From: Planctopirus limnophila DSM 3776
GTDB lineage: Bacteria > Planctomycetota > Planctomycetia > Planctomycetales > Planctomycetaceae
Assembly: GCF_000092105.1 (NCBI RefSeq)
Contig: NC_014148.1
Location: 2,250,001 to 2,282,000 of the forward strand
DNA length: 32,000 nt
Direction: 5' to 3'
In this document: piece after piece, positions 3,507 through 26,944 of the stretch
Layout of the letters: each line of letters starts with the position of its first letter
Position numbering within the stretch: the stretch's first letter is position 1
Made by a program: the position numbers and the translations under genes
The notes under the pieces: generated by a model
What the model saw: only the letters and a program-made list of their open reading frames with translations
Database searches by the model: none
Told to the model about the DNA's origin: nothing

Positions 3507-3884
3507 TTGATGCTGGCAGCAATTCCCAAAACGTGGGCTGATTTTACAAACAGGCTTCCCGACTTCTGGGAATTGCTGGGGATAACATTCATAGTGTTCG
3601 TGCTGATTTGGGGGATTTTTCGGCTCAAGGCATGGTTTCGCGACGATGACGATCCTGCGGACGCTGAACGGCAATTGCTTTTACAACTTCACGAAATGAC
3701 CCGCGAGGGTGAGTTATCCGAGGATGAATACCGATTGTTGAAGCGGAAGCTTGGCGTATCAGTTGCAGAATCGATCGGTGGCCCTTTTCAAAAGCGACCG
3801 GCCATTCCTGCAGATGATTCGCAAGGCCAGGCAACCGATGATTCTGTTGATCAGCCACCTGCGGCAGAGCAACAGAATACCTAG
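3507..3884 (+). CDS. Small single-pass membrane protein with SHOCT-like motif and acidic/Pro-rich tail
   Basis: 125-aa ORF with one hydrophobic helix (LLGITFIVFVLIWGIF) followed by GELSEDEYRLLKRKL, which resembles the SHOCT short C-terminal motif. No family assignment is possible by eye. Confidence 0.5.
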   Translation: MMLAAIPKTWADFTNRLPDFWELLGITFIVFVLIWGIFRLKAWFRDDDDPADAERQLLLQLHEMTREGELSEDEYRLLKRKLGVSVAESIGGPFQKRPAIPADDSQGQATDDSVDQPPAAEQQNT

Positions 3885-4224
3885 CCGAAAAGATGTCACC
3901 TCAGCTCAGAGATCGTTGATCGAGTACAGGCAAGTGCGTTCCTCTTGTTCGGTACTCAATTGACGGCTCGATGAAGGACATCTGCAATGACAGACAAGAT
4001 GACGGGTTGGTGAGAGACTTTGGCGAGCGACTGCTCTTTCGGGGCAGTGACCGCCAGAATAATTCTCAAGGAGGAAACAGCCATTTGAGTCTTACGGCTC
4101 ATTTGGCATTGGAGTTCATGGTGGAACTCTGCAATATCAATCTGTTCGACGGCGCAAGGATCGCCCCGTTGCGGCATGGCTTATCGAACAACGGATAAAC
4201 ACCGGCAGAGTTGAAGGAAAACGG

Positions 4225-5508
4225 ATGCCCTCAGGTCGCGATTTCATGTCCGCAGGTAAACGTGGTGCCACTGGCAAAAAGAACGCCAATTGTTCCTTCT
4301 GCCGCAATAGTTACCGCGAAGTTGGCCCCCTGGTTGAAGGACCGGACGAGGTCTATATCTGTGGGCAATGTATTGAACTTTGCCAATCGATTCTCGACCA
4401 GGAGAAGAAGCGGCGTGGAGGGCCTACCAAGCTCTTCAACCGTATCCCGACACCTCGGGAAATCACGACTCATCTCGATGAATATGTCATCGGGCAGGAT
4501 CGTACGAAACGACTGCTTTCAGTGGCTGTCTACAATCATTACAAGCGGCTGACTGCTGCCGCTGATGCTGACAACGATATTGAAATTGAGAAGTCGAACA
4601 TCCTTCTCATTGGTCCGACAGGTTCGGGAAAAACGCTGCTTGCCAAAACCCTGGCCCGCCTGTTGCAAGTCCCATTCGCGATTGGCGACGCTACCACGTT
4701 AACAGAAGCTGGATATGTCGGTGAAGACGTCGAAAACCTGCTGTTGAAACTCCTGCATGCCGCCGATTTTGATATCGAAGCGGCTCAGCGAGGCATTGTT
4801 TTCATCGACGAAATCGACAAGATCGGCAAGACAAGTCAGAATGTTTCCATCACTCGTGATGTCTCTGGCGAAGGTGTGCAGCAGGCCCTGTTGAAGATGC
4901 TGGAAGGAACAGTGGCCAACGTTCCACCTCAAGGCGGCCGCAAGCATCCCGAGCAGCAGTACATCCAGATTGATACTTCGAACATTCTGTTCATCTGCGG
5001 CGGAACATTCGTGGGTCTGGAAGATATCATTGCCAAGCGTCTGGGTAAGAAAACCATTGGCTTTGGTGGCAGCAGCGTGGATGATCAAAAGACCCGCTCT
5101 GGAAAGTTGCTTGCCCACGCCTGTACTGATGATGTCATCGAGTTCGGCATGATCCCTGAACTCGTGGGGCGACTTCCCGTCGTGAGTGCTTTGTCGCCAC
5201 TGGACGAGCAGGATCTGGTCAGAATTCTTTCGGAGCCGAAAAACTCTCTCGTCAAGCAATATCAGAAGTTCTTCCAGATGGAAAACGCCGAGCTGGAAGT
5301 GACCTCAGAGGCTTTACTGGAGATTGCTCGTATCGCCAAAGCCAAAGATACAGGAGCCCGCGGCCTTCGTTCGGTTGTCGAAGAATCCATGTTCGAAGTC
5401 ATGTACGAGTTGCCTGACATGGAAGCAGGCAAGAAGTATGTGCTGACTCCAGAAGTTGTGCGTGGCGAACATCGTTTGCGACCGCTCGATGAGCCGGCCG
5501 CCGCCTGA
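4225..5508 (+). CDS. clpX: ATP-dependent Clp protease ATP-binding subunit ClpX
   Basis: 427-aa ORF. It has the N-terminal zinc-binding CSFC...CGQC motif, Walker A GPTGSGKT, Walker [10 protein letters not shown], and the pore/IGF region typical of ClpX. The start could be the internal Met at 4246. Confidence 0.95.
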
Positions 5509-5810: not shown

Positions 5811-6620
5811 ATGCAGGCATCGCTACAGTTACTTCACCGAACTGCTAATATTCAGCAGATCCGCCTGCGCCCGGAAACAAGCATTGGCCGGGCACCTGAG
5901 TGCGAGTTGCGCATTGCTTCCTCACAAATCAGTCGTCGCCATTGCCGGGTTCTGATTGAGAACGACCGCGTTTATATCGAAGATCTAGGAAGCTCCAACG
6001 GCACCATTGTGAATGGTGTACTGATTGCTCCTCACGAGCGGGTGGAACTCTCTGCTGGTGACGAAATCACGATTGGCCCTGCTCAGTTTCAACTGAAGAT
6101 GAATAGTGCCAACACAACTCCAAGAATTCCTCCTCTGGGAAGCCTGCTGGCAGGTGCATTGAATTCATTGAGTTCGACGATTCTGGGCGGACGCAAAGAG
6201 GCCTCTGGCGAATCAGAGACGCAGGCCATTCCTGTCCAAGCGGTATCCGCTCAGCCCAATTCCATACACATCCCGGTGGTTGCTGATCAGGAATCGAGCG
6301 TCACACTCGAACCGTCTTCACTCACCACCACTGATGATCTTTCTGCTCAAGTATCAGGTGTTGACGAATCACAACCTGCTCTCCCTGTGATTCCTGCTGC
6401 ATTCCCTTTGGTTCCTTCGATTGATGAGCCACCTGCCATTGAGACGGTCTCGCCAACGACCGATTCCGAAGGAAATCTCTCACGTCTCAAGCTGGAAGCA
6501 GTGGAAGATCCCCCCTTACCAGTCTCCGGGATCGATAGCGAACAGGCTCCTCCCCAGTCGGATCCTGCGACACAGGAGGAGGACAATGACCTCTCCCGAT
6601 TTTTGCAGGGCTTAGGGTAG
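5811..6620 (+). CDS. FHA domain protein with long disordered Ser/Pro/Glu-rich C-terminus
   Basis: The FHA core reads IGRAPECELRIASSQISRRHCRVLIENDRVYIEDLGSSNGTIVNG. The track ORF starts at a TTG at 5760. The ATG at 5811 (MQASLQLL) is the more plausible start. Confidence 0.8.
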   Translation: MQASLQLLHRTANIQQIRLRPETSIGRAPECELRIASSQISRRHCRVLIENDRVYIEDLGSSNGTIVNGVLIAPHERVELSAGDEITIGPAQFQLKMNSANTTPRIPPLGSLLAGALNSLSSTILGGRKEASGESETQAIPVQAVSAQPNSIHIPVVADQESSVTLEPSSLTTTDDLSAQVSGVDESQPALPVIPAAFPLVPSIDEPPAIETVSPTTDSEGNLSRLKLEAVEDPPLPVSGIDSEQAPPQSDPATQEEDNDLSRFLQGLG

Positions 6621-6816
6621 CGAAATCGATTGGACTTTCGACAATATCAAAACTCCTGAGGAGTGTGGATCACTCAGAAATCACGAATCAACTCTGTCTT
6701 CTGGTGACCATTGCCTGGAGTTGAAACAACTGGTGCCGCACTTCGAAGGTTTATGGTCTGAACTAGTCCGACTGAATGCTGTTTGCCAACAAAATCTTTT
6801 CTTGAAATGACATTGC

Positions 6817-7212
6817 ATGACCACTGATTCAGCATCTGCCGAAATCCTTGCCTTAAGTCAGCAACTTCTGGCCACCATTGATCGCGGTGACTGGGAAGCT
6901 TACGCCAAACTTTGCGACCCTTCGATCACCTGTTTTGAGCCTGAAGCATTGGGGCATCTCGTCGAGGGTTTGCCATTCCATCACTTCTACTTCCAGCTTC
7001 CTGGCTCACCAACCAAACCGGCAAAGCAATCGACGATTGCTTCGCCTCATGTCCGCGTGATGGGAGAGAGTGCTGTCGTCTGTTACACGCGACTCGTGCA
7101 GAAGCTCGACGGTGCTGGTAGCCCAATCACCGTCGGAGCAATGGAAACACGCGTCTGGCAAAAGCTGAATGGTGCGTGGAAGCATGTCCATTTTCACCGC
7201 ACACCGCTTTAA
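6817..7212 (+). CDS. NTF2-like protein, CaMKII association (hub) domain family
   Basis: 131-aa ORF. The strings CDPSITCFEPEALGHLVEGLPFHHFYF and ETRVWQKLNGAWKHVHFHR align almost residue for residue with the metazoan CaMKII association domain ([27 protein letters not shown] and ETRVWHRRDGKWQIVHFHR). Confidence 0.85.
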   Translation: MTTDSASAEILALSQQLLATIDRGDWEAYAKLCDPSITCFEPEALGHLVEGLPFHHFYFQLPGSPTKPAKQSTIASPHVRVMGESAVVCYTRLVQKLDGAGSPITVGAMETRVWQKLNGAWKHVHFHRTPL

Positions 7213-7270
7213 ACAACGAGTTCTTAATTGAACGATCGCCGGTTTCTATCTGGAACTCATTGGTCAGACC

Positions 7271-19113: not shown

Positions 19114-20037
19114 CTAGAGCACCTTTTCGATGGTCTCTCGCAGAACGCGGCCGCTCGATTGCAGAGCAATCTTTTCCTTAGGCCAGAGATCCACTTCAAC
19201 GACCCCCAGAACACCTTTGCGTCCCACAATCGTTGGAACGGAAATCGCCACATCACGCAGACCGTAAGCCCCGTTTTGTAACGACGACACGGGCATCACA
19301 CGACGCTGATCAAGTGCAATACTGTGAATCACATCGGCAATCGATACACCGACTGCAAAGCCGGCGCCGCCTTTTTTCTTCAGCATTTCCGCACCGCTGT
19401 TGCGTGCCCGCTTCTCAATCTCGGTGATGAGTTGCGGCGTAACGCCTGGGTACTTGTCGACGGGCAGGCCGCCAATCTGGCCCAGTGACCAGATCGGCAC
19501 CATGCTATCGCCATGCTCACCATAAATGGTGACATCGACTTGAGTTGGCGGGACGGAAAGCTGCTGTGCCAGCAAGCTGCGCAGGCGTGTCGTATCGAGT
19601 ACGGTTCCTAATCCGATGACTTGCTTCGGTGGCAAACCCAGTTCTCGAATGGCCAGGTAAGTCAGTACGTCGACGGGGTTGGAGACCACAAACAGAATGG
19701 CGTCTGACTTCGGGCCCGCTTTCTTGATATCTCCCAGAATTCCGCGGAAAAGTGCCACGTTCCGGTTGATCAGATCCAGGCGGCTCTCATCGGGCTTACG
19801 CCGCAGGCCGGCGGTGACGACGATGACATCGCTATTGGCACAATCAGCCATTGTACCCGCATGAATCGACTGATCAGCCACCAGGCTGGCACCATGCAGA
19901 ATATCCAGTGCATGACCATCGGCGGCTTCAGGGTTCACGTCGATCATGACGATCTCGCGAACGATCTTTCCGAGTTGCAGTGCAAACCCGGCACATGACC
20001 CGACCAGCCCGCCGCCACCGATGATGCTGACTTTCAT
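19114..20037 (-). CDS. LDH/MDH-family NAD-dependent 2-hydroxyacid dehydrogenase (Arg at the LDH/MDH discriminator position)
   Basis: The start is placed at MKVSIIGGGGLVGS (Rossmann GxGxxG); the track ORF extends to 20115. The substrate loop is TAGLRRKPDESRLDL and the catalytic His is in YGEHGDS. It lies 93 nt downstream of the aldolase on the same strand. Confidence 0.85.
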   Translation of the reverse strand: MKVSIIGGGGLVGSCAGFALQLGKIVREIVMIDVNPEAADGHALDILHGASLVADQSIHAGTMADCANSDVIVVTAGLRRKPDESRLDLINRNVALFRGILGDIKKAGPKSDAILFVVSNPVDVLTYLAIRELGLPPKQVIGLGTVLDTTRLRSLLAQQLSVPPTQVDVTIYGEHGDSMVPIWSLGQIGGLPVDKYPGVTPQLITEIEKRARNSGAEMLKKKGGAGFAVGVSIADVIHSIALDQRRVMPVSSLQNGAYGLRDVAISVPTIVGRKGVLGVVEVDLWPKEKIALQSSGRVLRETIEKVL

Positions 20038-20130
20038 GGAACTGACTTTCGCTGAGAAACGATGCATTGAAGACCACGCCCTTCGGAAGACCTCAGGGAC
20101 GTGCCACGCGATCAAACGGTAACAAAAAGA

Positions 20131-21051
20131 CTACTTTTTGAGGGCGGCCATGACCTGCTCGGTGATCATCTTCACCAGCATTTCGGTATCGACGGGTGCT
20201 GCTGCAGCTGATGGAGCTGCGGCTGGTGCAGGAGTTGACTTCTGTCGTTCGAGATAGCCTGGATAATACGGGGCTGGCTCGAAAGCGGCGGGTTGTGGCT
20301 GAGCGTCTTTGTAGCCTTCGCGGAACGCACTGTTGCCGCAAAGATCGCAATTCTCGACATGGAAGCGGGGATCATCAAAGCCGAGCTTCTTCTTGAGATC
20401 GAGAAGCTCAACCGACTCTCGCTCGTTGAGATACTCGACACGGCCCAATTGCTTGGAAAGCAGCAGAATCCGGCAGTAAGCATCGAGGATCTCGGTCTTC
20501 CAGTAAGCTTCTTCGAGGTTCGCACCGAAGCTGACTGTGCCGTGATTGGTCAGAATGATTGTGTTGGTACCCTTGAGGAAGGGCACCACTGTGTTGGCAA
20601 AGGCATGCCCACCGGGAGTTTCATAAGGGGCGATGGGGACTTCACCCATGAAGACTTCGATTTCTGGCAGAATGCACTGCGGGATGGGTTCGCGAGCTAC
20701 TGCAAAGGCTGTGGCATGTGGTGGATGGCAGTGCACAACAGCCTTCACATCGGGACGATGCTTCATGATGGCCAGGTGGAGCAGAATCTCGCTGGTGCGT
20801 TTTCGCTTACCGGCAATCTGGCCGCCTTCAAGGTCAACCGCGCAGATATCATCGGGAGTCATGAACCCCTTACAGATCATCGTGGGGGAACATAGCACTT
20901 CGTTTTCGCCGACTCGGATCGAAATGTTCCCATCGTTGGCGGCGGCAAAGCCTTTGTTGTACACCCGGCGACCAATTTCGCAGATGAGCTCTTTGAGCTT
21001 GCGGTCGTTGATGCCCGAATTCCATTTGTTGGCAGTGGTCATGAGAAACAT
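20131..21051 (-). CDS. Class II (fuculose/rhamnulose-1-phosphate-type) aldolase with about 90-aa C-terminal extension ending in an encapsulation-peptide-like helix
   Basis: The aldolase core has GNISIRV and the zinc-ligand block VVHCHPPHATAF, plus TNHGTVSFG. It is followed by a Pro/Ala linker (STPAPAAAPSAAAAPV) and a terminal amphipathic helix DTEMLVKMITEQVMAALKK. Confidence 0.9.
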   Translation of the reverse strand: MFLMTTANKWNSGINDRKLKELICEIGRRVYNKGFAAANDGNISIRVGENEVLCSPTMICKGFMTPDDICAVDLEGGQIAGKRKRTSEILLHLAIMKHRPDVKAVVHCHPPHATAFAVAREPIPQCILPEIEVFMGEVPIAPYETPGGHAFANTVVPFLKGTNTIILTNHGTVSFGANLEEAYWKTEILDAYCRILLLSKQLGRVEYLNERESVELLDLKKKLGFDDPRFHVENCDLCGNSAFREGYKDAQPQPAAFEPAPYYPGYLERQKSTPAPAAAPSAAAAPVDTEMLVKMITEQVMAALKK

Positions 21052-21100: not shown

Positions 21101-21412
21101 CTATGTTTGTGTCAGCTCAATCTTGTCGAGGAGGCAGGCGTTGTAAGCATCGAGTGGTTTGGAATCGGGATGAAAGGGAGCTGAAGCTTCTGCTCCTTCA
21201 CTGATGGCAATGATGTCCCCCGGGCTTGCTCCCAGTTCGTCGTAAACAATGATGGCCTCTTCTCGTCCGCGAACAGTCATCGTCGTGTCGCGATGAATCA
21301 CAGCAGCAAGGCCCTCAGCCAATAGTGGAACTGCCACAATCCAGGTGCCACCCAGCACTGTGGGATCGCATTTTGACAAAGTGACCCGGCCAATCACTTC
21401 GGCTAATCTCAT
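21101..21412 (-). CDS. BMC-P (EutN/CcmL family) pentameric vertex protein, paralogue 3
   Basis: 103-aa ORF MRLAEVIGRVTLSKCDPTVLGGTWIVAVPL..., with a typical EutN/CcmL N-terminus and length. Its start overlaps the upstream ORF stop as ATGA (21409-21412). Confidence 0.85.
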   Translation of the reverse strand: MRLAEVIGRVTLSKCDPTVLGGTWIVAVPLLAEGLAAVIHRDTTMTVRGREEAIIVYDELGASPGDIIAISEGAEASAPFHPDSKPLDAYNACLLDKIELTQT

Positions 21413-22269
21413 GGTGCCACTCCTGTTCCTGAGGGGATCCCAGTACGGACAATGGCTTGCACCAGATTTCGCAGCTCAATGAATGTTTTGAGTGTCGGGT
21501 CAATGACATAAACATTGGGGCTGAAGTCGCTGCTCGTGAGCAACACCTCGGCGAGGGATGATACGACAGCAGCACGTATCGCTGGCGACCGGTTCAGATC
21601 GCAGGCCCGCTTGGCTGCTGAGCGTTCAATCAGAATGGCCCCATGAGCTTCGGCTTTATGGATCGCTCCGGAGACGAACTCCTGGGTTTCAGTTCCTGTG
21701 CCAAGAATCTTGACTTGCGATACTGTCGCGGCTGTCTGGGTACTATTCAAAAAGGTCTTCACATTCGCTGTGGCAGAGACCACACCGAGGACCCACTTCG
21801 CAGCCATTGAGGATGGATTTGAAGCTTTGTTAGAGGAGGCATTGCCTGCGGCTTTCGGCAGCAATGTGGAATTGGCAGGGGAAAGACCACGTTCAAGAAC
21901 CACATGATGATCGCGGAGCCAATCCTTTGCGGCTGGCGTCACGATCGACTTTGCGGAGGCAAAAACTCTAGCAGCACCACAAGCGAGCCTGGAGAGTAGC
22001 TCGGCTGTAATCACCGCTTCCGTGAGTGTCACACTGGAGCCAAGTGAGCTGGCAACGGCTGGAGCCGTCACTAATGGTTTCGAGACGGAAGTTGCTGGGA
22101 AGGCGTGATTGAGGCTGGCCACCGTTTCTGGCGGCAAATGAATCCTGCTGACGGAAGCCACAGGCTGATCGATCGAAGCTGTTGATTCAGGACGTACGGC
22201 GCTAACAGCTCGGCTGTGAAGCTGAGCCAGCACGTTCCGGACGATCTGATCGACAAGTTCGGTGGACAT
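21409..22269 (-). CDS. Unknown-function protein with encapsulation-peptide-like N-terminus (candidate BMC cargo/assembly factor)
   Basis: 286-aa ORF. The N-terminus MSTELVDQIVRNVLAQLHS matches the amphipathic motif on the aldehyde dehydrogenase and PduL. It is followed by a Ser/Ala/Pro/Val-rich region and a roughly 140-aa alpha/beta-looking C-terminal domain. It is translationally coupled to the downstream BMC-P. Confidence 0.65.
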   Translation of the reverse strand: MSTELVDQIVRNVLAQLHSRAVSAVRPESTASIDQPVASVSRIHLPPETVASLNHAFPATSVSKPLVTAPAVASSLGSSVTLTEAVITAELLSRLACGAARVFASAKSIVTPAAKDWLRDHHVVLERGLSPANSTLLPKAAGNASSNKASNPSSMAAKWVLGVVSATANVKTFLNSTQTAATVSQVKILGTGTETQEFVSGAIHKAEAHGAILIERSAAKRACDLNRSPAIRAAVVSSLAEVLLTSSDFSPNVYVIDPTLKTFIELRNLVQAIVRTGIPSGTGVAP

Positions 22270-22313
22270 GGGGACTTTGCTGGTCGTTTATAAAAAAGTT
22301 GATTGTCAGCTGA

Positions 22314-22338
22314 ATTGGCAGGCAGGAGCCTGCCCTAC
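22314..22338 (-). repeat. 25-nt hairpin element, copy 1 (attggcaggcaggagcctgccctac)
   Basis: 7-bp GC-rich stem ggcaggc/gcctgcc with a 4-nt loop. On the mRNA strand it lies 15 nt downstream of the BMC-P stop codon (22354). It matches 22651-22675 at 24 of 25 positions. Confidence 0.85.
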
Positions 22339-22353
22339 AAATCCGTTTTGAAC

Positions 22354-22611
22354 TCAAGGATCGACGAGGCCGAGTGACATAAAGCGAATCGGGCTGTCCT
22401 CCGCCTTCACAGTCTCTCGAACAGTCTTTCCATCGGAAGTGATGACCACCAGATCGCCCTGGGCAGCTCCCAGACCATCAATGATCAGTTGGGGGGCACC
22501 ATCGGGTTTGTCGTTGACACCCAAAGGCTGGGCAATCAGCAGTTTCCATCCCTGAAGACTGGGATGCTTGACCGTGGAAGTTGCTCGTCCAATGATTTTT
22601 GCCACTTGCAT
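22354..22611 (-). CDS. BMC-P (EutN/CcmL family) pentameric vertex protein, paralogue 2
   Basis: 85-aa ORF MQVAKIIGRATSTVKHPSLQGWKLLIAQPL...GDLVVITSDG, the canonical EutN/CcmL pattern. Confidence 0.85.
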   Translation of the reverse strand: MQVAKIIGRATSTVKHPSLQGWKLLIAQPLGVNDKPDGAPQLIIDGLGAAQGDLVVITSDGKTVRETVKAEDSPIRFMSLGLVDP

Positions 22612-24249: not shown

Positions 24250-24765
24250 TTACTCAGTGGAAATCCCTCGATAGGCCATCGACTCCTGACAGATTTTTCG
24301 AAACTGCTGGACTTTGGATTGTGTGGGAAAATGAATCATCATCGTGAAGACAGTGAGTGCGGCTACGATGGGACTGATGATCGAGCCTGCCATCAGCCAG
24401 GCCACAAGATTCAACATGCCTGCACCTTCAACGACGGCAAGACGAACAATGCCTGAGGTGAGGAAATTCTGAGCCATCCAGGGCTCATCGATCGTTTCCG
24501 CCTTGTTCAAAGCCCCTTTAAGAATCTGCGCCGGGAGCACAAACGAAAGCACAATCGCACTACAACCCATGATGGCTGCAATCAGAGTCAATGGATTGCC
24601 GAACAGGTCTCCATCAAACTTCAACTCACGAATGATGGTAATTACTACGGCAAAGACCACCGGCCCCATGATGAGTGCCAGCGTAATGATCTGCAGATTT
24701 CTCAAGGCTGCGTCGAGTGTCGTTACCTGTGTCGCCTCAGATTTTGCGGACAAAGATTTGTTCAT
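24250..24765 (-). CDS. Integral membrane protein, 4 predicted TM helices, unknown function
   Basis: 171-aa ORF with four hydrophobic stretches (IITLALIMGPVVFAVVITII; LTLIAAIMGCSAIVLSFVL; IVRLAVVEGAGMLNLVAWLMAG; IISPIVAALTVFTMMIHF). Its start overlaps the stop of the upstream BMC-P as ATGA (24762-24765). Confidence 0.6.
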   Translation of the reverse strand: MNKSLSAKSEATQVTTLDAALRNLQIITLALIMGPVVFAVVITIIRELKFDGDLFGNPLTLIAAIMGCSAIVLSFVLPAQILKGALNKAETIDEPWMAQNFLTSGIVRLAVVEGAGMLNLVAWLMAGSIISPIVAALTVFTMMIHFPTQSKVQQFRKICQESMAYRGISTE

Positions 24766-26503: not shown

Positions 26504-26944
26504 CTAGATGAACTGTTCGAGGAGCGACTTTTCCGGGCGGGCAATGACATGCGCGCTCACCACTTCACCGATTGCGGCAGCGGCTTGTTGACCGGCATCG
26601 ACCGCAGCTCGAACGGAGCCCACATCGCCACGAACAATCGTGGTGATATAAGCGTTGCCGATCTGAATCTGCTTGACGAGTGTGACGTTGGCGGCCTTCA
26701 GCATGGCATCGGCTGCTTCGATCTGGGCGACAAGCCCTTTGGTCTCAACGAGACCGATTGCTTCACCATTCATGAGAGAAGTTCCAGAGACAGGAGACGG
26801 AAGTTGTTCAACAGAATTCGCAACAGGAGTGATCACTGAACTAGCAGCAGCTTTCTCCCGAGGACGCTTCTCCGCAGACGAGCGTGATTTTTCAACCGGT
26901 CGTTTGCTGGACGTCTTGGGCATGACCACCTCATTCACTGACAC
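26504..26944 (-). CDS. BMC-H (Pfam00936) hexameric shell protein, possibly with a 57-aa basic N-terminal extension
   Basis: The C-terminal 89 aa ([30 protein letters not shown]...[13 protein letters not shown]) form a canonical BMC domain. The ORF stays open for a further 57 codons upstream ([36 protein letters not shown]...). The alternative start is the ATG at 26773. Confidence 0.85.

Follow-up and report, generated by a model that had tools for sequence, protein, structure and literature searches.

The microcompartment operon of Planctopirus limnophila DSM 3776 poses a question: what does the protein encoded between two of its vertex genes do? The stretch of DNA that we analyzed (hereafter the window; 32,000 nucleotides, NC_014148.1, positions 2,250,001 to 2,282,000) holds a complete bacterial microcompartment (BMC) operon of the Planctomycetes/Verrucomicrobia type (PVM) on its minus strand. 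According to the open reading frame (ORF) listing, the ORF at 21409–22269 on that strand has an ATG start and comprises 286 codons plus a stop codon; it is identical (100%) to Plim_1749 of this strain, which is annotated there as a "hypothetical protein". In the BMC catalogue (Sutter et al. 2021), PvmK and PvmM are two of the pentamers, PvmN is the aldolase, and PvmO is the dehydrogenase. The ORF sits between PvmK and PvmM and is therefore pvmL, a name that follows from gene order. This gene is a conserved core component of the planctomycete PVM fucose/rhamnose microcompartment operon, and its product is one of the two family-less proteins in the best-studied planctomycete BMC locus, the other being a membrane protein encoded at 24250–24765.

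PvmL is built of three modules: an N-terminal encapsulation peptide (EP), a middle domain, and a C-terminal RpiB/LacAB fold. An AlphaFold2 model based on 57 sequences had a mean predicted local distance difference test score (pLDDT) of 80.6 and divided the protein into three confident parts and two disordered linkers, as follows:

21409..22269, minus strand: pvmL (Plim_1749), the whole ORF, assigned by the ORF listing, 100% identity and gene order
22207..22263, minus strand: predicted EP, residues 3–21 (TELVDQIVRNVLAQLHSRA), an amphipathic helix (pLDDT about 88), assigned by AlphaFold2, conservation and an EP profile
22036..22206, minus strand: linker 1, residues 22–78, rich in S, A, V and P, disordered (pLDDT ~50)
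21889..22035, minus strand: middle domain, residues 79–127 (VITAELL...IVTPAAKDWLR), a β-α-β-α-β domain (pLDDT 94–97) and putative docking module, assigned by the model, conservation and profiles
21796..21888, minus strand: linker 2, residues 128–158, rich in S, A and N, disordered (pLDDT ~50)
21445..21795, minus strand: degenerate RpiB/LacAB-fold domain, residues 159–275, a five-stranded α/β domain (pLDDT 87–97, mostly above 90), assigned by Foldseek, profiles and Pfam searches on relatives

Linker 1 differs in length and sequence between homologues. The original prediction, made from the DNA letters alone, had described a low-complexity linker in this place, and the composition and low pLDDT of residues 22–78 bear it out. 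It had overlooked the middle domain and the existing catalogue entries for pvmL and its EP.

What, then, is the C-terminal module? When the pvmL ORF was used as a single query, it had no Pfam match at E ≤ 1, retrieved no PDB sequences, and found nearly nothing in NCBIfam; such queries were uninformative for PvmL, and family profiles were needed for the distant matches. Eight relatives were found by direct search and 60 by profile search. The Pfam and NCBIfam match counts given here were taken over 57 relatives, and residue conservation was counted over 200 family representatives.

The first 45 matches of the PvmL model in a Foldseek search of the PDB were all RpiB/LacAB structures (best E 1.6e-6, probability 1.00), with target-normalized template modeling (TM) scores of 0.44–0.77. 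A profile of the domain found 22 matches among PDB sequences, and the first 18 were all RpiB or LacA/LacB (best E 4.8e-5). PF02502 matched 44 of the 57 relatives at E ≤ 1 (best 5.1e-6), the NCBIfam RpiB and LacB models matched 18–25 of them, and hhalign placed the PvmL family on E. coli RpiB with an E-value of 1.1e-5. The PvmL of the window, having no Pfam match at E ≤ 1, falls below the PF02502 gathering score. The original prediction had mentioned a resemblance to this fold, judged it "far too weak to call", and proposed profile comparison, structure prediction and Foldseek. These methods found the RpiB/LacAB fold: the resemblance stands, and it is much stronger than was judged.

Does the fold retain an active site? 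In E. coli RpiB, Cys66 is the catalytic base and His99 serves in ring opening; the enzyme also has an Asp9/His10 loop, and its C-terminal residues Arg133, His134, and Arg137 form a phosphate site. Cys66, Thr68, His99, and Asn100 of that enzyme align with E215, S217, D248, and F249 of PvmL, respectively. Among the 200 representatives, the Cys66-equivalent position is T in 81, S in 51, A in 44, V in 9, E in 6, and C in 6; the His99-equivalent position varies among Q, S, E, D, and T, and that of Asn100 is hydrophobic (L, M, or F). For E. coli RpiB, it is Cys66 and His99 that are named as key to catalysis (PMC11585597). Where a genuine RpiB domain (from locus L032, described below) has its GSDH loop, PvmL has an A and an N that are not conserved. 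Against E. coli RpiB, the alignment stops at residue 120 of 149, with only ~8 further domain residues in PvmL, and PvmL has no counterpart of the phosphate-binding tail at the C-terminus of RpiB. As judged from these alignments, the isomerase fold of PvmL has lost its canonical catalytic residues. Several other positions are nearly invariant: N226 (200/200), R227 (199/200), N252 (197/200), C223 (193/200), and R232 (183/200). They belong to the RpiB motifs retained in PvmL, namely ANK (N226-R227), IRAA (R232), and NVL (N252), plus C223. We read the ANK, IRAA, and NVL residues as maintaining the fold rather than contacting a substrate. A dead, EP-tagged RpiB fold would remove a "missing enzyme" from the model of the PVM pathway.

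An RpiB homologue without activity has a precedent in another type of compartment. In sugar-phosphate-utilizing (SPU) BMCs, the RpiB-family protein RPI bears an EP and a ~75-residue linker; it shows no ribose-5-phosphate isomerase activity and binds DERA, the signature aldolase, in a ratio of roughly 1:1 (PMC11585597). All SPU RPIs have Asp at the position of Cys66 and keep His99, and the RPI has been called unique to SPU BMCs (PMC11585597). PvmL, with its RpiB fold, contradicts the claim that RPI-like proteins are unique to those compartments. Its residues depart from the SPU signature: Planctopirus PvmL has E215 in place of the Asp, and the His is lost throughout the family.

A protein encoded at 4787–5602 of L032 (271 residues) combines features of both. 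It has an EP-like helix, the middle domain, and a genuine RpiB domain (PF02502, E 6.8e-48) that bears GSDH, Asp at the Cys66 position, and a retained HNN, which is the SPU RPI signature. The PvmL family aligned with it across all three modules (hhalign 97.8%, E 7.9e-13, 227 columns). The genes around it encode topoisomerase I, PGK, and GAPDH; its own gene is possibly a satellite belonging to a compartment of the SPU type. The original prediction had treated PvmL as a protein of unknown function without a family, and this no longer holds: the EP-bearing, inactive SPU RPI represents a family whose role in BMCs is documented (PMC11585597). The expectation that no well-characterized family with a BMC role would be hit has thus given way in part, through the SPU RPI and the end-to-end alignment with the L032 protein.

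We turn to the N-terminal helix. The N-terminus of PvmL, MSTELVDQIVRNVLAQLHS, resembles the N-termini of the aldehyde dehydrogenase (AldDH) and PduL, and QIVRNVLAQLHS is identical to the N-terminal 12-mer of the AldDH at 7 of 12 positions, as counted from the translations. Residues I9, V10, V13, L14, and L17 of the helix are conserved in ~190 of the 200 representatives. An EP profile in the catalogue's files, HMM02441_01.PVM (36 positions, 59 sequences), has the consensus ..sELIerIVrEVLrRLra, which agrees with ELVDQIVRNVLAQLHS of PvmL at every hydrophobic position. An EP is typically a terminal amphipathic helix of ~18 residues that precedes a poorly conserved linker in a BMC-locus protein, and residues 3–21 of PvmL fit this description. 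The hydrophobic moment of the helix did not set it apart from shuffled sequences (0.34 vs. a shuffle mean of 0.26; 26% of the shuffles were as high). Because the HMM02441_01.PVM consensus fits and the hydrophobic positions are conserved, the predicted EP of PvmL is real by the usual criteria and is already catalogued, as that file attests (Sutter et al. 2021). On this point the original prediction, which had likened the N-terminus to those of AldDH and PduL, was right.

How widespread is such a protein? When 1.84 billion cluster representatives were searched exhaustively with a profile, 2881 representatives of the PvmL family were found at E ≤ 1e-3, and 663 passed the stricter limit of E ≤ 1e-30; among the matches listed (150), most were 215–255 residues long, and nearly all were matched along almost their whole length. 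Divergent relatives (20–33% identity) hold the same position in their loci. Applied to all fetched loci, a gene-order script found the order BMC-P, PvmL, BMC-P, aldolase in 23 of the 25 PVM-type loci that it listed; of the other two, one contig stops just past the downstream BMC-P gene, and the other is an ordering artefact of the script. By cluster names and genome titles, the named full-length relatives and the genome hits are Planctomycetota, with the sole exception of locus L025, from a bin labelled Terriglobia. In this PVM-type locus, fragments of PduL, acetate kinase, and AldDH recur with frameshifts, and the contig breaks off in a truncated PvmL. Poor assembly, or a planctomycete contig placed in the wrong bin, seems the likely cause; L025, being frameshifted and truncated, was excluded from the gene-order count.

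The middle domain (~45 residues) is the most conserved part of PvmL; T111 and P112 are present in all 200 representatives. Modelled alone, it had a pLDDT of 93.6. The C-terminus of TIGR02536, "eut_hyp" (positions 163–206 of 207), matched it in 53 of the 57 relatives (best E 3e-5, NCBIfam), and the C-termini of two PduM models did so as well (positions 132–160 of 162 in 10/57 relatives and 111–152 of 153 in 5/57; best E 3.8e-5). The best individual match of a PduM model to the PvmL relatives was ~19 bits, vs. cut-offs of 179 and 50. The Pfam family PDU_like (PF15953) matched 8 of 35 isolated middle domains; this family is equated with PduM in the catalogue (Sutter et al. 2021). Residues 5–46 of E. 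coli EutT aligned with the domain at an hhalign probability of 81% (E 1.3e-5), and the NCBIfam EutQ model matched 5 of the 57 relatives (best E 0.0075). A homologue search that started from a mixed alignment of middle domains yielded nothing beyond short fragments of EutT and EutQ. Searches of the PDB with the domain gave chance-level sequence matches only (NDUCA, PDCD5), and Foldseek on its model gave heterogeneous matches, the best at E 0.054; since no PDB match was better than this, no solved structure resembles the middle domain.

We then built a hidden Markov model (HMM) from the middle domains of PvmL only and searched it against the 4868 stop-to-stop ORFs of all fetched loci, which had been pre-selected by a genome scan with a motif of the same domain; all matches up to E = 10 were carriers of the middle domain. 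Besides PvmL orthologues, the carriers were these:

L027 (Gemmatimonadetes), one of the pair at 3682–4206 and 6001–7227: Cys-rich protein of 174 residues, middle domain at its start, C-terminal EP (E 5.9e-16)
L027: aldolase of the DHDPS family (PF00701) that starts with the middle domain (E 2.1e-12)
L032: protein with EP, middle domain and full PF02502 domain (E 2.7e-11)
L028 (5938–7053), L030 (6013–7122), L031 (1781–2890), L033 (6010–7116) and L034 (5866–7047), all Acidobacteria: five class II aldolases with an N-terminal middle domain and a C-terminal EP (E 5.6e-11 to 2.2e-8)
L029 (4303–6108): AldDH with two EP-like helices and the middle domain at its extreme C-terminus (E 1.9e-8)
E. coli: EutT (E 2.7e-4)

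The two middle-domain proteins of L027 are encoded at the coordinates given, beside a gene for a four-domain BMC shell protein. The pair fits the description of MUF2 in the catalogue, where a shared N-terminal domain is noted and left unnamed (Sutter et al. 2021). In L028 and L031, the aldolase with the middle domain directly follows BMC-P genes; for the ACI aldolase, the accessible parts of the catalogue mention only a C-terminal EP (Sutter et al. 2021). The AldDH of L029, from a Bryobacteraceae genome, is an acylating enzyme of 601 residues whose C-terminal extension has the two EP-like helices, VDRFLAARGV and VVDRFLAARR, ahead of the middle domain.

These distributions raise the possibility, which we put forward tentatively, that the middle domain is a general BMC docking module acting independently of EPs. 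With locus types classified from the literature or by our own judgement, it is found on cargo and accessory proteins of at least five of them (PVM, PDU, EUT, Acidobacteria aldolase, and MUF2-like) and on an SPU-type RPI, usually paired with an EP in one protein; we hold the general docking role to be possible rather than probable. Just as tentatively, PvmL might tether the aldolase core to the shell through this domain, perhaps at pentamer vertices. If the proposal is true, BMCs own a second transferable targeting or linking device besides EPs. The domain links PduM to TIGR02536, EutT, PvmL, and several aldolases and dehydrogenases; it is a testable candidate for core–shell tethering and possibly a new cargo-loading tag.

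What might the three modules do together? We lean slightly toward the view that PvmL is a non-catalytic core–shell adaptor, possibly one that partners with the aldolase. We infer its mechanism from parallels with the inactive SPU RPI and with PduM. The EP would insert PvmL into the cargo core, the middle domain would dock on a shell protein or a partner, and the dead isomerase fold would supply oligomerization, binding of PvmN, or both; the aldolase and the core would thereby be tied to the shell by PvmL. The adaptor is suggested by the SPU RPI–DERA precedent and the repeated pairing of EP and middle domain in one polypeptide, by the aldolases of other locus types to which the middle domain is fused directly, and by the core–shell separation phenotypes of ΔpduM and ΔeutQ. 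Analogy, the fusion proteins, and the conserved proximity of the two genes indirectly make PvmN a candidate binding partner of PvmL. In Acidobacteria, the fused aldolase comes immediately after the BMC-P genes, and its place is thus comparable to the one that PvmL plus PvmN take in PVM. The original prediction had envisaged a lumen-targeted cargo, a scaffold, or a component for cofactor recycling, with an activity that the standard aldolase/AldDH/PduL model does not explain; of these options a scaffold fits best, and cofactor recycling or a hidden enzymatic activity is unlikely because the equivalents of the RpiB catalytic residues are not conserved.

Four points weigh against the adaptor. There are no BMC genes within ~5 kb of the gene for the L032 protein. 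The RpiB-like domain of PvmL is no closer to the domain of that protein than to E. coli RpiB (E 8.3e-6 vs. 1.1e-5), so it is the shared architecture that carries the case for common descent of PvmL and the SPU RPIs. The link to EutQ, whose H1/H2 are the one shell-binding region defined by experiment, is weak: residues 3–44 of E. coli EutQ align through IITPEAR with ILTPSARD of PvmL at an E-value of 0.0019 and a probability of 14% (hhalign), and HMMER gave 6.3 bits (E about 2). Finally, the near-invariance of N226, R227, C223, R232, and N252 could mean that a ligand site has been retained.

This last point leads to an alternative in which PvmL is a ligand-binding pseudoenzyme that holds a phosphorylated metabolite (dihydroxyacetone phosphate, fuculose-1-phosphate, or rhamnulose-1-phosphate) or a cofactor, and acts as a sensor, buffer, or channelling partner rather than as a mere scaffold. 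The five residues have stayed nearly invariant while the catalytic positions drifted, and the RpiB family binds sugar phosphates. The conserved residues are those of the ANK, IRAA, and NVL motifs, which we read as structural, and the equivalents of Asp9/His10, of the Arg133/His134/Arg137 segment, or of both are absent or unconserved. We regard a pseudoenzyme as unlikely.

Another alternative concerns the neighbors of pvmL, which are as follows:

22354..22611, minus strand: pvmK, the BMC-P gene upstream of pvmL (PF03319 EutN/CcmL, E 2.5e-23)
21101..21412, minus strand: pvmM, the BMC-P gene downstream of pvmL (PF03319 EutN/CcmL, E 6.5e-14)
21409..21412, minus strand: ATGA, where the stop codon of pvmL overlaps the start codon of pvmM; the plus strand reads TCAT
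20131..21051, minus strand: pvmN, class II aldolase and signature enzyme (PF00596, E 5.3e-49)
20134..20193, minus strand: C-terminal EP of pvmN, residues 287–306, C-terminal sequence VDTEMLVKMITEQVMAALKK

Both the position between two vertex genes and the overlapping ATGA had been called correctly from the letters, as the PF03319 matches on either side and the TCAT at 21409–21412 attest. Gene adjacency suggests a low, vertex-like stoichiometry for PvmL, since pvmL is placed and translationally coupled between two pentamer genes. PvmL might then be a vertex-specific assembly factor whose middle domain binds BMC-P and helps to insert or cap the three distinct PVM pentamers. The gene always lies between two BMC-P genes, with the 4-bp overlap of start and stop, and the aldolases with a middle domain come directly after BMC-P genes in Acidobacteria loci. 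Likewise, pduM precedes pduN in the pdu operon. On the other side, the N-terminus of EutQ, whose homology to the middle domain is weak, binds the hexamer and trimer tiles EutM and EutL (PMC12487888). What speaks for a vertex factor is adjacency, and we consider it quite unlikely.

Could PvmL nevertheless be an active sugar-phosphate isomerase that uses a non-canonical site in an unrecognized step of fucose/rhamnose breakdown? The RpiB of M. tuberculosis has Glu in place of the Cys, and RpiB enzymes are promiscuous; Planctopirus PvmL has Glu215 at the Cys66 position, where SPU RPIs have Asp. However, this Glu is not conserved (E in only 6 of the 200 representatives, which have mostly T, S, or A), the equivalents of His99 and Asn100 are lost, and the phosphate-binding tail is missing. 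The SPU homologue keeps more of the site, yet it has negligible isomerase activity (PMC11585597). Furthermore, the PVM pathway as accepted has no step inside the shell that calls for an isomerase. An active isomerase is thus very improbable.

Hardly credible is a flavoprotein (PF02441) for redox or cofactor recycling, since the label in the catalogue's HMM table that speaks for it has no support in Pfam, PDB sequences, or Foldseek, and PF02502 matches 44 of the 57 relatives instead. That label comes from Supplementary Data 6 of the catalogue, where the PF02441 "Flavoprotein" HMM group has PvmL as its PVM homologue (Sutter et al. 2021). PF02441 was absent from the 25 listed Pfam families with matches in the largest numbers of relatives at E ≤ 1, no flavoprotein name occurred among the 22 profile matches in the PDB, and no flavoprotein appeared among the first 45 Foldseek matches. 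The RpiB assignment corrects the label.

The rest of the PVM operon was also inspected. Its order is DeoR regulator, PduL-type phosphotransacylase, two BMC-H genes, acetate kinase, BMC-P, a membrane protein of 171 residues, AldDH, BMC-P, pvmL, BMC-P, class II aldolase, and a dehydrogenase of the lactate/malate type. No PF01791 (DERA) gene was found in the PVM locus of the window, where the aldolase is of class II (PF00596). The 171-residue ORF (24250–24765, minus strand) has no Pfam or NCBIfam match, and its sequence reads as that of a multi-pass membrane protein. Its neighbors are a BMC-P gene and the AldDH gene, and it shares 4 bp with the former, which lies upstream. Because homologues detectable by phmmer hold the same place in five other PVM loci, it is a second uncharacterized conserved protein of the operon, probably PvmI. 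The second BMC-H ORF (26504–26944, minus strand) has, as listed, a basic N-terminal extension of ~55 residues rich in S, P, and K, which depends on a putative start codon; the BMC-H genes of other PVM loci encode 88 to 194 residues. In the 84-nt spacer between pvmK and pvmL, upstream of pvmL, a GC-rich hairpin (GGCAGGC-UCCU-GCCUGCC) lies at 22296–22318, with a U-run ~20 nt beyond it; the fold energy of this hairpin was not significant vs. shuffled sequences (z = -1.58). The ORF of pvmO, the LDH/MDH-type dehydrogenase (19114–20115, minus strand), begins, as listed, 26 residues ahead of the Rossmann motif MKVSIIGGGG. This extension is not EP-like; possibly the enzyme has no targeting peptide, or its translation begins at the internal Met.

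How does PvmL, read as an adaptor, compare with known systems? This is not a new system, since the gene, the name pvmL, and the EP are already in the literature; what appears to be new is the assignment of the RpiB fold, the architectural kinship with SPU RPIs, and the shared middle-domain module. PvmL has the same α/β fold as the housekeeping RpiB/LacAB enzymes (PF02502) and keeps their ANK, IRAA, and NVL motifs; unlike them, it has drifted in its catalytic and substrate-binding residues, carries an EP and a middle domain in addition, and is encoded in a BMC operon. It shares with the SPU RPI an N-terminal EP, a linker, an RpiB fold, and the replacement of the catalytic Cys. The SPU RPI is encoded beside the signature aldolase and complexed with it, and the L032 protein bears the SPU signature together with the three modules of PvmL. 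In contrast, PvmL has lost the His99 and Asn100 equivalents, lacks a counterpart of the C-terminal tail, and lies below the PF02502 threshold; its operon has a class II aldolase instead of DERA, and a BMC-P gene lies between PvmL and the aldolase.

The comparison with EutQ concerns its small helical N-terminal region, in which IITPEAR aligns with ILTPSARD of PvmL, a similarity that is not statistically secure. Within this region, H1/H2 (residues 9–41) are needed for shell association, H3/H4 bind an EP, and the N-terminus interacts with EutM and EutL, hexamer and trimer tiles (PMC12487888). EutQ thus links shell and cargo; unlike PvmL, it has a catalytic cupin acetate kinase domain and no classical EP of its own. 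TIGR02536, from the eut operons of Firmicutes, and EutT carry the ~40-residue domain of PvmL with different accompanying domains.

PduM (PF15953, TIGR04493, NF011957), a structural protein of the Pdu microcompartment, has no known homologues outside Pdu, according to its authors. It has an N-terminal signal sequence, its residues 1–23 place it in the cargo core, and loss of PduM partly separates the core from the shell (PMC12108088). The match to PvmL covers only the last ~40 positions of the PduM profile, in 10 of the 57 relatives, and scores far short of the family cut-offs; PduM lacks an RpiB-like domain and carries the shared domain at its C-terminal end. In other respects the two are alike: each begins with a signal sequence or EP, each is encoded by a gene that adjoins a pentamer gene, and the C-terminal ~40 residues of PduM match the middle domain of PvmL.

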